Shown here: positions 64 through 61,715 of the stretch, one piece after another
How the letters are laid out: the number at the start of each line of letters is the position of its first letter
How positions within the stretch are numbered: position 1 is the stretch's first letter
NCBI GenBank assembly: GCA_045125595.1
Contig: JBGVNN010000054.1
Coordinates: forward strand, 74,182-138,181
Source: Candidatus Egerieisoma sp.
GTDB lineage: Bacteria; Bacillota; Clostridia; UBA1212; UBA1255
DNA length: 64,000 nucleotides
Reading direction: 5' to 3'
Made by a program: the position numbers and the translations under genes
Notes under the pieces: generated by a model
The model's input: the letters and a program-made list of their open reading frames with translations, nothing else
Told to the model about the DNA's origin: nothing
Databases searched by the model: none

Positions 64-1911
64 TTATCGTTTCATTCGCTTCCCATGTTTCTTTACAGGG
101 GTATGTTGTTGTGGCTTTTTGATTACAAGAGGAGCCACGAGACAACCGGGTTTGTTGCCTATTAAATCTTTGCGCCCTGCCTTGGTGAGAGCGGCAATGA
201 CAGCTTGCCTGTTTTCCGGACGGAAGTATTGCAAAAGTGCGCGTTGTTCGGCTTTTTGCTCTTTTGTTTTAGGAACGTAAACCTTTTTCATGGTGTACGG
301 GTCAATTTCCGAATAAAACATACAAGTGGAAATTGTGCCGGGGGTGGGGTAGAAATCCTGAACCTGCTGCGGCCTCAATTTCTGCTCTTTTAAGAAGAGT
401 GCAAGCTCGATAGCGTCCTTTAATGTCGAACCCGGGTGGGATGACATCAAATAGGGAACCAAATATTGTTCTTTCTTTACTTTTTTGCTTATAGCAAAGT
501 ATTTTTGCGCAAATTTCTTGTATGCTTCTATGTGCGGCTTGCCCATTTTGTCCAAAACTGCTGCGGAACAATGCTCGGGTGCTACCTTTAATTGTCCGCT
601 GACATGATGCTCTACAAGCTCTCTGAAAAATTCGTCGTTTTTATCTAATAACAAATAGTCGTATCGTATGCCCGAACGAATAAATACTTTTTTTACTTTT
701 GGAACTTTGCGCAAATCTTTGAGGATAGAGAGGTATTCCGAATGGTCAACCTTAAGCGCTTTACATGGAGTGGGAGCGAGGCACTTTTTCGACGGACACA
801 AACCGTATTTTTTTTGCTTCTCGCATGACGGAATTCTGAAGTTGGCTGTCGGCCCGCCCAAGTCGTGAATATATCCTTTAAAGTTTGGCTTTTGCGTCAG
901 GAGCTCTGCCTCGCGCAAAATCGACTCGCGGCTTCGGCAAGTAACAGCCCGGCCTTGATGAAATGCGATTGAGCAAAAATTACACGCTCCAAAACATCCT
1001 CTGTTGTGAGTTATCGAAAACTCTACTTCGGAAATTGCGGGCACGCCACCGGCTTCGTCGTATGAGGGATGCCAGGTTCGCTCAAATGGGAGCTCATATA
1101 TTGCATCTAATTCTTTAGTTGTAAGAGGAGGCATGGGCTGATTTTGCACAAGCCATCCCGAGCGTTGCTCTTGTATAAGCGGCCTGCCGCGTACGGCGTC
1201 TTGCTCATCAAGCTCGATGCGGCAGGATTCTGCGTATTTTTCTTTACTTTGTGTAATTTCTTTAAATGATGGCAGGTAAATCGCGCCTTTTTTTGTAGGG
1301 CGATTTTTTGTCATGTAGCAAGTGCCTTTGATATCTGTAAGTGATGCAATCGGTTCACCGTTATTTAATCGCCTGACAATCTGACGTGTTTGATTTTCAC
1401 CCATACCGAAAGAAAGCATATCTGCCTTGCAATCTTCTAAAACGGAAGGCATAACCTCGTCTTTCCAGTAATCATAGCCTGCGAAACGTCTTAAAGACGC
1501 TTCCAGTCCTCCTACAATTATGGGGATATTTCCGTATATATCTCTAATCTTTTTGCAGTAGACAGTGAGCGCACGGTCGGGGCGAAGACCCGCCTTTCCG
1601 CCCGGGGAGTAGGCATCTTCACTACGCTTCTTCTTTGCAGCCGTGTAGTGCGCAACCATTGAATCGACATTACCTGAATTTACCATAAAACCCAAACGTG
1701 GTCGGCCGAATCTTGTGAAGTCTTCGTTTGTTTTCCAATTGGGTTGTGCAAGGATAGCAACTCGCATACCTTCATCTTCGAGAACCCTTGAAATAATAGC
1801 AGTGCCGAACGACGGGTGGTCGACATATGCGTCGCCGGTGACAAGGACAAAATCAACCTCATCCCAGCCTCTTTCTTGAACTTCTTTTAATGTAATAGGT
1901 AAAAACGCCAT
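64..1911 (-). CDS. ygiQ: YgiQ/UPF0313 family radical SAM protein
   Basis: N-terminal VTGDAYVDHPSFG, radical SAM motif RGCFGACNFC, QVQDFYPTP. Start placed at ATG 1911 (GAAAGGCGG RBS upstream). Confidence 0.9.
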   Translation of the reverse strand: MAFLPITLKEVQERGWDEVDFVLVTGDAYVDHPSFGTAIISRVLEDEGMRVAILAQPNWKTNEDFTRFGRPRLGFMVNSGNVDSMVAHYTAAKKKRSEDAYSPGGKAGLRPDRALTVYCKKIRDIYGNIPIIVGGLEASLRRFAGYDYWKDEVMPSVLEDCKADMLSFGMGENQTRQIVRRLNNGEPIASLTDIKGTCYMTKNRPTKKGAIYLPSFKEITQSKEKYAESCRIELDEQDAVRGRPLIQEQRSGWLVQNQPMPPLTTKELDAIYELPFERTWHPSYDEAGGVPAISEVEFSITHNRGCFGACNFCSIAFHQGRAVTCRSRESILREAELLTQKPNFKGYIHDLGGPTANFRIPSCEKQKKYGLCPSKKCLAPTPCKALKVDHSEYLSILKDLRKVPKVKKVFIRSGIRYDYLLLDKNDEFFRELVEHHVSGQLKVAPEHCSAAVLDKMGKPHIEAYKKFAQKYFAISKKVKKEQYLVPYLMSSHPGSTLKDAIELALFLKEQKLRPQQVQDFYPTPGTISTCMFYSEIDPYTMKKVYVPKTKEQKAEQRALLQYFRPENRQAVIAALTKAGRKDLIGNKPGCLVAPLVIKKPQQHTPVKKHGKRMKR

Positions 1912-1954
1912 TTGCGAGCCGCCTTTCAAAAAATGCTGCCTATACTATAGCACG

Positions 1955-1986
1955 TTTTGCGCAAAATTGAAAGCTGTGACGCAAAA
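1955..1986. repeat. Spaced inverted repeat TTTTGCG-N18-CGCAAAA (copy 1 of a pair)
   Basis: ttttgcg caaaattgaaagctgtga cgcaaaa, in the ygiQ/gap divergent intergenic region. Confidence 0.9.
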
Positions 1987-59594: not shown

Positions 59595-59612
59595 TTTTTT
59601 ATCCCTCTTTTG

Positions 59613-61715
59613 TTAAAATTTTACAATAATACCTTTTTTTGCCTCAATTACCAAATCAGGCTCTTCGGCATTATACCACAATCCGTCTTCGGGATTCATA
59701 CATTTTATTGAATAATTTTTGCATTCAATATGAACTTTTGCTTCTGCCTCTCCCGTATTGACAATAAAACATAAAATTTCGCCGGTTTGTAAATCTTTTT
59801 TTGCCAAAGAAATAATCTCATCAGATTCAGACACGATGTTGTATTCTCTGCGAATGATTTCATTTGCTGCTTTGACTGCGCCTTTGGCATCTTTCACATG
59901 AACAACTTTTTTGAAGAATTTATCGTCGATAATGTTCGTGCTGCCGTCAATGCCGATTACGGGTGTGTTTTGCGCAAAATCTATTGCTATGACGCAAAAT
60001 CCTCTCTGAACTAAAGCTGTCAGTACACTCAAGGTCTCATTTGTTATGACTGCAGGGCGGGGGAGAATCAACACTTTATATTCTGCGTCACATCCCGGGT
60101 TTACAAGCGCATTTTTCTCTACGGAAAATTTTGCGCTCGCCAAAACTGTTGTGTCTGCACAATGAAACATATTTTGATTTTTGATAAGCTCATCTATTGT
60201 TTCTCTCCAAGTTTCTTCGCATAACTTGGCGCTGTCAGAATATTCTCTTTCGTGTAATTGTTTGTCTGAACCAATTAAAGAGGCTTGTGCTGACTCAATA
60301 GGATAATATACGAGGATGTTTGACATGTCTTGTTTGGCCTCGAATTCATTGCATAATCTGTCCAAAGCAGAACAGAGCGTGCGGTTTTCCGTAACAGAAA
60401 GAGCATTGTCATTAAAGTATGAATTGAAAATATCAACACCGAGCACAAATTGCACATACTGCGCACAAAGTATATCGCCAAAGTCGAAAGGTATGCCAAG
60501 AGCCGTTTCCGTATGTCCGGAAATTTCAGACATAACATGCTTTCTGCCGTACCATGCAGCCACAGACGATACCAGTTTCGGTGTCGCGGCATATTTTATT
60601 ACGCTCTTCGGCTTTGTAAACAACATATCAATTCCGGGAATGTGCATATGTCTTAACAAATTGAAAAAATTGCCCTCGAAAATTGCATGATGCAGTACAT
60701 TCTCTTCTAATAGTATATGACCTGAAAAGTCTATTGAATGTTCTTTGCAAAATTCTGATATTTGCTTAAAAAATGCTTCTTCATACAAATCAGATATCAT
60801 AGAGTAATAGTTATATCTGACAGACAAGGCTTCCGCAGAGTCTCCGCCAAACAAATAGTGCAGCTTAAACTTCAAATTCTCTGCGTAACGCTTCTCGTAT
60901 ATATTTAAGATGTCGTTTTCCCAAGCAACCAATGCAAGCAAAGGTATCTCGTCGTCGTATGGGTCATCAACCACAGGTGGCGTGAGTCCTGCGTTCAAAT
61001 AACAACATTGCATTGAAGGCTCGTCCGTGAAAAATGCCGGCAAATTCTCACGAGGAAGATTGAGGTCTTTAACCATATCCATGTATTTTTTATAAGTATT
61101 ATCAATAAAAGCCGCTACGGCTGCTTTGTTTGTCAAACTGATATAACGTCTCGCGGCGCAAACATTGTGTTGTGCGTGCGTGCCTTCATAAAGCCTTTTT
61201 GACGCGAAACAATACAGCGTGCCGCTCAAGTCGGGAGAGAAAACGAGCTTTCCGTCGCGTGATACCTTGCCGGATAAGTCTGTTACTATACCGCAGTGGT
61301 CTATCATGTAAACACTTTCGAATTTGTTATGACCATGTGGTATTTCTACGGAAATCTGCTCGCTCGCCGTTACTTCTTTTTTTATCATTACAAGCGCTTT
61401 GCATTCATATTGAGGATTGTCTTTTAATGTTAAACCTCCGGCTCCGCCGCTCGGATAACCTTTCTCATCATAAAGCCAAACTTTCATATTATGCTTTTGA
61501 ACTGCATATTTTAATGAGTGCCTGAAAAGCTCCCAAGCTTCTTTGTCATGTAGATAATTGTTATTGTGGAGCACATTCGTAACGATGCCGCCATAGCCTT
61601 TATCTGCCAAGTCGTTGAGCCTGGCTTCGATTGTTTTTTTCTTTGCTTCAACATCATTGCCCGCTGCCGAAAAATCATAACCGTGCAACATTAAAAGTGG
61701 TTTGCAATTTGCCAT
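59613..61715 (-). CDS. Putative glycoside hydrolase (GH106 alpha-L-rhamnosidase-like)
   Basis: WLYDEKGYPSGGAGG, FFTDEP, SGH...EE, PGIDML, KLVSSVA...VMSE; no signal peptide. Confidence 0.6.
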   Translation of the reverse strand: MANCKPLLMLHGYDFSAAGNDVEAKKKTIEARLNDLADKGYGGIVTNVLHNNNYLHDKEAWELFRHSLKYAVQKHNMKVWLYDEKGYPSGGAGGLTLKDNPQYECKALVMIKKEVTASEQISVEIPHGHNKFESVYMIDHCGIVTDLSGKVSRDGKLVFSPDLSGTLYCFASKRLYEGTHAQHNVCAARRYISLTNKAAVAAFIDNTYKKYMDMVKDLNLPRENLPAFFTDEPSMQCCYLNAGLTPPVVDDPYDDEIPLLALVAWENDILNIYEKRYAENLKFKLHYLFGGDSAEALSVRYNYYSMISDLYEEAFFKQISEFCKEHSIDFSGHILLEENVLHHAIFEGNFFNLLRHMHIPGIDMLFTKPKSVIKYAATPKLVSSVAAWYGRKHVMSEISGHTETALGIPFDFGDILCAQYVQFVLGVDIFNSYFNDNALSVTENRTLCSALDRLCNEFEAKQDMSNILVYYPIESAQASLIGSDKQLHEREYSDSAKLCEETWRETIDELIKNQNMFHCADTTVLASAKFSVEKNALVNPGCDAEYKVLILPRPAVITNETLSVLTALVQRGFCVIAIDFAQNTPVIGIDGSTNIIDDKFFKKVVHVKDAKGAVKAANEIIRREYNIVSESDEIISLAKKDLQTGEILCFIVNTGEAEAKVHIECKNYSIKCMNPEDGLWYNAEEPDLVIEAKKGIIVKF
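59968..59999. repeat. TTTTGCG-N18-CGCAAAA copy inside the glycoside hydrolase coding sequence
   Basis: ttttgcg caaaatctattgctatga cgcaaaa (encodes GFCVIAIDFAQN on the - strand). Confidence 0.85.

Follow-up and report, generated by a model that had tools for sequence, protein, structure and literature searches.

Conserved spaced palindromes in a gut Clostridia genome as probable docking sites of a candidate dimeric protein with a predicted Vsr-like fold

Sites of the parS, ram, matS and NBS type are compact palindromes of 12-16 bp that are read by helix-turn-helix or ribbon-type proteins, and WhiA, the product of a single widely conserved gene, has a LAGLIDADG fold; we know of no spaced palindromes or paralog-specific site families that accompany WhiA. 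Here we analyze a spaced palindrome, TTTTGCG-N18-CGCAAAA (F1), which recurs in a stretch of 64,000 nucleotides (the window) from Candidatus Egerieisoma sp., together with a gene at window positions 5104-6246 whose product may be the protein that reads it. The window corresponds to positions 74182-138181 of contig C54 in a draft genome (G000; 2.16 Mb in 68 contigs, 36.9% G+C). Two described systems are of particular relevance. In the sections of PMC3116915 that were available, both ends of a REPIN are conserved and inverted, and in the spacer between them length counts over sequence; each repeat family comes with a single-copy nuclease-family gene, RAYT, flanked by its repeats. The available sections of PMC3239194 describe I-Bth0305I as a homodimeric multidomain enzyme whose footprint is long and whose target is pseudopalindromic, and the EDxHD family as having a composite catalytic motif with an essential aspartate and a histidine that serves as the general base.

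The TTTTGCG-N18-CGCAAAA sites hold up as genuine and conserved DNA elements. All 14 exact copies listed in a preliminary description of the window are present (at 1955, 2049, 3297, 4286, 4781, 4854, 16746, 16840, 21211, 24031, 24092, 24165, 24240 and 59968), as are its four near copies at 890 (N17, exact arms), 3886 (N18, one mismatch), 4503 (N19, exact arms) and 17714 (N19, one mismatch), and its estimate that far fewer than one match is expected by chance was borne out by 100 dinucleotide-preserving shuffles of the window, which contain none. The sharp maximum at 18 that it had proposed to look for is seen when the two arms are sought across the whole G000 assembly at every spacing from N0 to N60 (N18 = 28, N19 = 3, N17 = 1, and 0-1 at each of the other lengths), and the same heptamers in direct or everted arrangement at N16-20 do not occur in this genome. 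Between 24.3 and 59.9 kb, where no sites had been reported, a scan covering spacers N14-22 and up to two mismatches finds only two-mismatch matches, all at other spacer lengths. The clustering described for the window is real but was understated, as a single contig, C54, holds 25 of the 28 copies in the genome, at 15.5-134 kb; the remaining three are on contigs C10, C24 and C40 (one each). Moreover, the extended half-site G-TTTTGCG-(C/T)-(A/C) proposed earlier is recovered from the 25 C54 copies (G in 20/25, C in 19/25, T in 6/25 and A in 21/25), for which the full consensus is G-TTTTGCG-C-A-a-A-a, approximately 8 free bases, then t-t-n-t-G-CGCAAAA-C-t. Each arm therefore spans some 13 bp, the outer 9 of which are almost invariant. 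The claim that the spacer is of free sequence stands for the middle ~8 bp, but not for the first five and last five bases, which lean to CAAAA...TTNTG. As the preliminary description also stated for copies outside the 24-kb array, the spacers are not self-complementary, and no pairing within a site extends past the consensus; spacers and flanks are unrelated between the F1 copies compared within G000. We also considered, and rejected, a reading of each site as two TTTTGCGCAAAA palindromes for two dimers, since the inner halves GCAAAA-N8-TTTTGC occur only three times, no more often than at other spacings.

Comparison with relatives indicates that the F1 sites are not a recent mobile repeat and that they behave as selected recognition sites. 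Among 40 relatives, the motif is present only in G001, a sister species from the same genus, which has 26 exact copies; the 39 remaining genomes have 0-1, the same as a reversed-pattern control. When each of these 26 sites is placed in G000 by means of its flanking DNA, the corresponding position in G000 also carries a site in approximately 20 cases, among them both sites before the candidate gene, the gap-region sites, and the coding sites in the TmcAL-like gene and a 700-residue gene; five have no partner (C27:13012, C86:28811, C97:302, C116:21016 and C141:1822), and one further place, at which G000 has a site of another family, is treated below. Copies of odd length, namely the N17 copy in a radical-SAM gene and the N19 copies, keep their spacer length in both species, and a seven-unit array in G001 corresponds to a five-unit array upstream of cysE in G000. 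In 13 aligned G000/G001 pairs, 181/182 arm positions are identical, compared with 132/235 spacer positions (56%) and 422/780 positions in the 30-bp flanks (54%). The arm identity is partly built in, the pairs having been chosen as sites in both species, and the independent statistic is the retention of ~20/26 sites against a background identity of ~55%. At the 4286 coding site the sister species has the same codons and five spacer changes, four of which are synonymous, and the corresponding place in G003, the closest relative without the F1 site, has different amino acids, no site, and no insertion or deletion. At least this copy thus arose by substitution and not by insertion of a mobile unit. 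One feature has shifted between the sister species: a T...A preference immediately outside the arms is seen in 11/13 G001 sites versus 1/13 of their G000 partners. Finally, contigs from three DNA sequencing runs on other metagenomes represent strains that are ~99% identical to the window, and none of the strain differences listed at 3277-5853 falls in an arm (236 further differences lie beyond that list). Length variation among strains is seen at window positions 2041-2068, where one run has the spacer of site 2049 lengthened by 25 letters; another strain contig has ~62 additional letters in the same intergene, and a T-run between sites 4781 and 4854 (4819-4827) varies by 1-2 bases. An RNA run covers the gap gene only and has no bearing on expression of the sites or of the candidate gene.

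In the window, the F1 sites and the candidate gene are arranged as follows.

890..920: near copy with N17 and exact arms, within the radical-SAM (YgiQ-like) gene; N17 is kept at the orthologous G001 place
1955..1986: exact copy between the divergent radical-SAM gene and gap; the next copy is 94 bp away
2049..2080: exact copy, also between the radical-SAM gene and gap, upstream of a promoter-like TTGCAA..TATAAT of gap
3297..3328: exact site between a terminator-like hairpin of gap and the tmcAL-like gene; orthologous site in G001
3886..3917: near copy with N18 and one mismatch, within the HIGH-nucleotidyltransferase (TmcAL-like) gene
4286..4317: exact site within the TmcAL-like gene
4503..4535: N19 copy with exact arms, within the TmcAL-like gene; N19 is kept in G001, and G003 lacks this segment
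4781..4812: exact copy, 292 bp before the candidate binder gene; orthologous site before the G001 ortholog
4854..4885: exact copy, 219 bp before the candidate binder gene and 73 bp after site 4781
5042..5070, + strand: promoter-like ATGACA-17-TATAAT with TG before the candidate gene, a match to consensus only
5104..6246, + strand: candidate cognate protein gene (380 residues), modeled with N-terminal long helices, a lysine-rich beta hairpin and a C-terminal Vsr-like fold
16746..16777: exact copy between a znuA-like gene (-) and the divergently oriented spoIIID (+)
16840..16871: exact site 94 bp after site 16746 and ~85 bp before the spoIIID start
17714..17746: near copy with N19 and one mismatch, within an aroE/aroK fusion gene
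21211..21242: exact site within aroA (EPSP synthase)
24031..24271: four exact sites (24031, 24092, 24165 and 24240; steps of 61, 73 and 75 bp) between a terminator-like hairpin and a lipoprotein-like gene
59968..59999: exact site within a 700-residue gene without known family; orthologous site in G001

The radical-SAM/gap intergene carries one site in G001 and none in G003, the znuA-like/spoIIID intergene carries two sites in G001 as well, and the place of the four-site array has one. For the 3886 copy, a similar sequence is present in the site-less G003, and conserved protein sequence may be a large contributor to this match. After the coding site in aroA, a second inverted repeat (ACAGTGATGTTGCG ... 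CGCAACATCACTGT, window 21211-21275) reuses the right arm.

The gene that follows sites 4781 and 4854 encodes a protein without any Pfam or NCBIfam match. Even at E <= 5, Pfam gives only two chance-level rows and no Vsr or DUF559 membership, and a DUF559 search of G000 did not match the family genes and provided no usable relative. A profile search of PDB sequences yields a single chance-level row, the ESM Atlas returns 'hypothetical protein' clusters only, and Pfam scans of ten distant relatives give only weak HNH_repeat and SAP rows. The family itself is small, as a nine-member profile run against 1.84 billion representatives matches only 157 clusters at E <= 0.001, 20 of them at E <= 1e-30. 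Among the 40 relatives, this query finds the family in its own genus only (5/9 other genomes, and none of the other 13 genera), and an ortholog of the candidate in G001 only (64% identity, with all other members at <=31%). Motif and ortholog therefore co-occur in G001 alone, which as a single lineage counts as one event. A copy with 64% identity is found at locus L033, in a Clostridia metagenome-assembled genome.

An AlphaFold2 model of the candidate (predicted local distance difference test score (pLDDT) 78, predicted template-modeling score 0.76) has long helices at residues 30-59 and 125-160, a lysine-rich beta hairpin region at residues 66-103, and a C-terminal alpha/beta domain at residues 220-380. 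When this last domain was compared with 48,161 chains using VIA-align, the highest matches were Vsr endonuclease (1cw0; Z 10.0, root-mean-square deviation (rmsd) 3.2, 114 residues aligned) and the catalytic domain of I-Bth0305I (3r3p; Z 9.4, rmsd 2.9, 93 residues aligned), followed by RAP/FASTKD modules (Z 8-9), the DUF559-type structure 3hrl (Z 7.7), and Bax1 and TnsA (Z ~7). The model thus predicts a Vsr-like/PD-(D/E)XK endonuclease fold for the C-terminal domain. Residues S234-K235-N236-E237, E254-P255, D265, E306, G309, Y316 and K323 are invariant in 9/9 family members, and the acidic ones form the pattern expected of an active metal site. In addition, the protein is predicted to form a homodimer, with a score of 0.73 against 0.00 for the best of three controls. 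This mark is reached by 20/30 solved one-chain pairs and by 1/23 solved single chains, counts that are rough and for which our own alignment was used. The dimer runs agree in at least 67% of contacts, with a partner pLDDT of at least 73, and the predicted contacts, which involve residues 132-158, are antiparallel and have two-fold symmetry. Two identical arms held at a fixed distance would be well suited to reading by a symmetric dimer built on a rigid helical spine.

The F1 sites are one of five such families in this genome. Inspection of the DNA beside a paralog of the candidate on contig C49 (C49:31434) revealed F2, TTTTCGT-N21-ACGAAAA, as four units placed 73 bp apart upstream of the gene, and across G000 this motif again has a sharply preferred spacer (N21 = 32, N20 = 2, and 0-1 at other lengths from N10 to N30). 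The three remaining families and the distant members of the protein family came from mutually blind searches. A scan of G000 that combined every 7-mer arm with every spacer from N6 to N40 has as its top classes F2 (TTTTCGT-N21, 32 sites), F1 (TTTTGCG-N18, 28), F3 (TTTTCTC-N22/N21, 18 + 12), F4 (TTTTCTG-N19, 13) and F5 (TTTTTAC-N18, 14), the only other top class being the true CRISPR repeat. All five families start with T4 and end with A4, and they differ in the 3-bp core and in spacer length (N18 to N22). F2-F5 are spread over many contigs, unlike the clustered F1. F5, with its 14 sites in G000, is also found in relatives (9 sites in G001, and 14 in each of G005 and G007), and F3 units share ~165-240 bp at 71-89% identity at several loci. 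The true CRISPR array lies at C41:112561-113772 and C7:2-135, with 18 + 3 repeats, a core of CGCACCT-N6-AGGTGCG followed by TGGATTGAAAC, and a period of 66-69 bp. The palindromes were themselves considered as a CRISPR array and rejected, given that only the arms are conserved, that there are 2-7 units per array, that the DNA between sites is itself repeated in several cases, and that a real array exists elsewhere.

By profile search, G000 has seven genes of this protein family, including three distant members. Sites are found less than 1 kb (indeed less than 300 bp) from five of these genes, each of which adjoins a different site family.

C54 gene: F1 (TTTTGCG), 219 and 292 bp upstream
C49 gene: F2 (TTTTCGT), four sites, 80-299 bp upstream
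C56 gene: F4 (TTTTCTG), three sites, 51-198 bp downstream
C14 gene: F3 (TTTTCTC), on both sides
C43 gene: F5 (TTTTTAC), 232 bp upstream

When seven 1-kb genes were placed at random in 200,000 trials, at least five of them fell within 1 kb of any site in 22 placements, a figure that ignores the fact that each real gene meets a different family. Pairing of the site families with the paralogs is likely, and the G000 genome would contain at least five protein-and-site pairs. The family genes are old paralogs with 30-70% identity. Recent mobility of these genes was considered and discarded, as the C14 and C67b genes are 70% identical within the gene only; similarly, the apparent gene 'copies' on C43, C21 and C45 are one 141-bp overlap of contig ends.

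The spacing between sites is also regular. Centre-to-centre distances between neighbors in the five families are 42.5-43, 53, 61-62, 72-75, 83.5-84.5, 93-94, 103.5-105, 125, 137.5-139 and 147 bp, which correspond to four to fourteen whole helical turns, and for the 20 distinct distances a 10.5-bp period gives a Rayleigh R of 0.79 (p ~4e-6) with a mean phase of ~0. Complementarity between the two halves of a spacer is no higher within a site than in a between-site control. Whole-turn phasing in combination with unpaired spacers points to proteins bound on one face of duplex DNA, and not to RNA or cruciform stems.

We consider it reasonably probable, if far from settled, that the TTTTGCG-N18-CGCAAAA sites are the cognate duplex-DNA sites of a homodimer of the 5104-6246 protein, set out in in-phase arrays, and that the four sister pairs work alike. 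The protein would form a two-fold homodimer through its antiparallel helical module, and each subunit would read one arm of ~13 bp, that is T4, the 3-bp core and then an A/T tract. A rigid dimer would set the distance from arm to arm, leaving spacer length fixed and the central sequence free, and the whole-turn spacing of sites would place several dimers on one DNA face to give higher-order arrays. Such arrays would lie mostly between transcription units, including before the protein's own gene, and the same logic might apply to at least four sister pairs in which each paralog has its own core and spacer length. Binding may act locally, as a barrier, an insulator or an architectural complex, perhaps with autoregulation in addition. 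That the 5104-6246 protein is the binder is something we infer from the sequence. The preliminary description had proposed a dimeric DNA-binding protein with an architectural role, by analogy to Noc, RacA, RefZ or MatP, in preference to the operator of a classical regulon. Its dimeric binder gains support from the two-fold symmetry of the recognition sites and from a candidate that is predicted to be a homodimer; the analogy fares less well, because the candidate is in no family shared with those proteins and the four sister families are scattered. The sites do indeed not behave as operators of a classical regulon, given the unrelated neighboring genes, the sites inside genes, and, at the two family-gene promoters inspected, the position of sites off promoter hexamers.

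Several observations weigh against this assignment. Only adjacency and co-occurrence link the protein to the sites. Two of the seven family genes have no site of the five families within 1 kb: the gene at C67:29042 has only loose TTCGAA-type repeats upstream, and the distant gene at C67:52190-53125 has a different array directly downstream (53135-53466; six units of CCGAAAA-N9-TTTTGGGG with a 52-bp period). In relative G007, 6 F2 sites are present although a search at E <= 1e-20 finds no ortholog of the C49 gene there. The F2 sites are, moreover, asymmetric. Of 32 sites, 3 have complementary bases at mirror position 1 and 2 at mirror position 3, versus 12-13 in the control, and one arm continues AC whereas the other continues CC. 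This asymmetry is not predicted by a plain homodimer, and it might reflect a heterodimer of two paralogs. The assignment of the fold rests on VIA-align Z values of 9-10, just over the range that is common for unmatched models (typical best Z 7-8), Foldseek finds nothing in the PDB at E <= 0.001, and the N-terminal part matches only generic helical bundles in VIA-align, none of them convincing. No histidine is invariant in the 9/9 family sequences, and by reading of the alignment, as distinct from superposition, the histidine of the Vsr/EDxHD type has no evident counterpart in VEI(T/A/L)G. The clustering of F1 and the scatter of the other four families mean that no single domain-organizing role fits all five. 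Finally, two places carry different families in different species, for which simple selection for binding by one protein is insufficient. Upstream of cysE there are TTTTGCG arrays in G000 and G001, TTTTGTC...GACAAAA units in G003, and none in G002, G004 and G005; and in a glycoside-phosphorylase-like gene the same codons read TTTTGCG...CGCAAAA in G001 and TTTTTAC...GTAAAAA in G000, both cores having changed in step.

Family-switch codons: G000 C43:3751 and 3979 versus G001 locus L042:1082 and 851, TTTTTAC-type versus TTTTGCG-type

F2 sites always pair two arm variants, TTTTCGTAC with TTTTCGTCC (C49:26729-27055, C8:73035-73361 and C13:287-467, among others), and arrays resembling the one with a 52-bp period on C67 are present on C65, C29, C33, C24, C49 and C12.

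Other explanations of the sites have to be weighed against binding by the candidate homodimer. A selfish system resembling REPIN/RAYT, in which the palindromes would be non-autonomous mobile repeats and the Vsr-fold paralogs the single-copy nucleases that mobilize them, one per family, seems to us unlikely. Such a system would account well for the occurrence of one nuclease-family gene per repeat family, for genes flanked by repeats, for several families in a genome, and for vertical persistence; REPINs, too, have two conserved inverted ends around a spacer that is kept in length more than in sequence, as far as the available sections of PMC3116915 describe them. The units shared among F3 loci, the differences in array length between strains, and the invariance of active-site-type acidic residues point in the same direction. 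The unrelated spacers and flanks of F1, however, leave no place for a master element of 32 bp or more, in which respect F3, with its shared units, differs; the coding site at 4286 was made without insertion; and with ~20/26 sites orthologous, turnover appears low. Phasing and the absence of spacer pairing also point to duplex DNA, in contrast to the single-stranded hairpins of RAYTs. The sole Y1 transposase gene of G000 (PF01797, C18:1088-1444) is on a contig without listed sites of the five families, rather than beside repeats, and the age of the family genes as paralogs is not that of recent copies. An earlier suggestion, that the sites are the target or scar of a mobile or nuclease system, accordingly survives in part: a nuclease target is still alive, given the predicted Vsr/PD-(D/E)XK fold of the candidate, but a mobile-element scar is unlikely, as the coding site shows no insertion or deletion relative to the site-less relative. 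We give rather less credence to a drive on the motif itself, whereby the Vsr-fold paralogs would nick the non-cognate strand of mismatched or near-cognate sites and bias short-patch repair toward their own palindrome, thereby writing, homogenizing and protecting sites even in essential genes with no need for a host benefit. Vsr, the closest match in fold, is a mismatch-directed nickase (function as given in the available sections of PMC3239194), and perfect arms even in coding DNA at the cost of amino-acid changes, the concerted shift next to the arms between the two sisters, and the exchange of one family for another at identical positions, with cores GCG/CGC versus TAC/GTA changed in step and likewise in the array before cysE, would all follow from such a drive. 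Nicking by these paralogs is, nevertheless, putative, with the Vsr-type histidine not evident in their sequences; whole-turn phasing and the strong preference for intergenic positions (22/28 copies outside long genes) are left unexplained; and tandem arrays could not be created by drive alone.

Binding of the sites by some other host factor, with the family genes merely adjacent, for example because the factor regulates them or because they arrived as cargo in the same old insertions, is in our judgment quite improbable, a little more so than drive. It would be compatible with a tie between protein and DNA that consists of adjacency and co-occurrence, and an XRE-type helix-turn-helix gene (window 25788-26420) lies 1.5 kb from the four-site array. 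Five families would, however, call for five factors, yet every one of them has beside it a paralog from one and the same protein family, which among the relatives compared is seen only in the genus that has the sites. Least credible of all, and barely worth retaining, is the idea that the palindromes are structural nucleic-acid elements, namely mRNA hairpins or cruciforms that act as terminators, stabilizers or processing signals and are under selection for arm pairing. Arm complementarity is indeed perfect, the cores co-vary between species at the same position, and several sites come after terminator-like hairpins. The result would be a stem of 7-9 bp closing a loop of 14-18 nt, however, with spacer pairing equal to the between-site control, and the arms fall into a few discrete classes without drift through compensatory pairs. 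Phasing by whole turns is, in addition, a property of duplex DNA, and sites occur in divergent and tandem intergenes and inside genes. Consistent with this assessment, no Rfam family reaches its gathering score at a site; in the window and 39 kb of other site loci (L009-L011), only tRNA and tetrahydrofolate (THF) riboswitch matches are found, neither of which overlaps a site.

The surroundings of the F1 sites are varied. By a crude gene call that labels ~91% of the genome as coding, 14/28 copies are intergenic, 6/28 are in long genes (246-877 residues), and 8/28 are in two open reading frames of 109 and 155 residues that span arrays and are probably spurious, being arrays miscalled as genes. 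With the same gene call, the G000 sites show no clear bias among divergent, tandem and convergent intergenes. Neighboring genes have no common pathway, and include the radical-SAM gene, gap, the TmcAL-like nucleotidyltransferase gene, folD, znuA, spoIIID and aro genes, as well as the likewise unrelated lipoprotein-like gene, cysE-cysS, a two-component system and focA. At two family genes whose promoter regions were inspected, sites are upstream of promoter-like hexamers and do not overlap them; those of the candidate gene end ~160 bp or more upstream of its -35-like hexamer. Sites often come in pairs or arrays, with pairs 94 bp apart (1955/2049 and 16746/16840) or 73 bp apart (4781/4854), an intergenic array at 58.7-59.0 kb of C54 with four units (three exact) and a 93-bp period, and the five-unit intergenic array upstream of cysE at 65.5-65.8 kb, with steps of 72, 62, 73 and 61 bp. 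GC skew is positive along all of C54 without a switch, and dnaA is on contig C6, not C54; by comparison with Bacillus maps, the cysE-cysS-sigH-like neighborhood hints at an origin-proximal location.

Other features near the sites may be recorded here. A THF riboswitch (RF01831, 48.5 bits) is found at L009 6983-7093 on the minus strand, corresponding to C54 ~61.16-61.27 kb, before a gene for an ECF S-component, with site C54:61347 just beyond it. The next ~4 kb (C54 ~61.3-65.35 kb; L009 ~7100-11170) carry genes for a vanR-like response regulator, a histidine kinase and a focA-like transporter; this segment is present in G000 and is skipped in the G001 alignment. Its left edge is ~50 bp or less from site C54:61347, and its right edge is beside a tRNA gene and the five-unit array. 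The spoIIID gene (window 16954-17241, + strand) encodes a 95-residue SpoIIID homolog that scores 123.7 bits with TIGR02844, over the cut-off, and has two sites in its upstream intergene; a sigH-like sigma factor gene follows cysE-cysS at C54 ~68.0-68.6 kb. Both genes are among the grounds that place the organism in the spore-forming-type Clostridia. At least half of the sampled words of the window sequence are found in 16 sequencing runs from 12 studies, on animal gut, manure and, in one case, a terrestrial metagenome; one of these runs may itself be where the sequence came from.

Literature searches with the motif strings gave only unrelated primer-like matches in a body of text that mostly leaves out subscription journals, and searches on PDDEXK proteins and palindromic repeats returned mostly CRISPR matches, with no description of the motif or the protein in the literature searched. 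The sites are most likely read by a previously undescribed dimeric protein whose gene adjoins two of them. If the pairing holds, the candidate would belong to a new family of sequence-specific DNA-binding, and possibly nicking, proteins that have a built-in molecular ruler, and the natural set of paralogs reading different 3-bp cores at different fixed spacings would make a compact system in which to follow the co-evolution of specificity and geometry. More than 100 predicted docking sites would then be maintained in a small gut Clostridia genome, in helically phased arrays between transcription units and even inside housekeeping genes, which points to a layer of chromosome organization, insulation or repair bias that has not been described in this group. 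Were drive on the motif the correct explanation, the protein would create, homogenize and protect its own sites. A second, independent partnership between repeats and a nuclease would also allow direct evolutionary comparison with REPIN-RAYT, which uses a different enzyme and single-stranded DNA.

Among systems in which chromosomal sites are bound by dedicated proteins, ParB-parS, RacA-ram, MatP-matS and Noc-NBS resemble the present case in having tens of palindromic sites, some of them in genes, at orthologous places and on one stretch of chromosome, as do the 25/28 F1 copies on one contig. They differ in that the arms here are split by a fixed gap, the candidate has a predicted nuclease fold, and there are five parallel families, four of which are scattered. 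The plasmid centromeres sopC and parC and iteron arrays likewise have regularly spaced tandem units with a short inverted repeat beside the gene for their binder; here, however, the arrays are chromosomal, stand beside housekeeping genes, occupy many loci per family, and are not paired with a partition ATPase. A ParA-like gene in the window (24875-25699) is of the Mrp/NUBPL type by Pfam. WhiA offers a parallel of another kind, as a homing-endonuclease fold that sporulating bacteria have retained for sequence-specific DNA binding. With I-Bth0305I and Vsr the candidate shares, according to its model, the fold class of the C-terminal domain (Z 9.4 and 10.0), although it has no Pfam DUF559 or Vsr sequence match and the EDxHD histidine is not evident. 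Moreover, the arms are 18-22 bp apart here, in contrast to the one compact 14-bp core of I-Bth0305I, and, unlike homing endonucleases, the candidate gene is outside introns and inteins, with intact sites kept in tens of host copies, including beside the gene itself.

The closest resemblance in organization is to REPIN-RAYT. In both cases a single-copy nuclease-family gene per repeat family is flanked by its own repeats, with several families per genome (according to the available sections of PMC3116915), and in both there are inverted ends, a spacer defined by length over sequence, mainly extragenic positions, ordered clusters and long vertical persistence (from the same sections and from abstracts). 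In G000 this arrangement is seen for 5/7 family genes, and the orthologous G001 sites speak for vertical inheritance. RAYTs, however, are Y1 HUH transposases, rather than proteins of a Vsr/PD-(D/E)XK-type fold as predicted here, and their repeats occur in hundreds of copies, compared with 13-32 for the families of this genome, which lack the GTAG/CGTC tag and have T4/A4 ends. Also peculiar to the present system are the unrelated spacers and flanks of F1, a coding copy made by substitution, unpaired spacers and whole-turn spacing. Allowing for these differences, and by analogy, REPIN-RAYT provides the nearest known logic for the organization of these palindromes and their candidate proteins.

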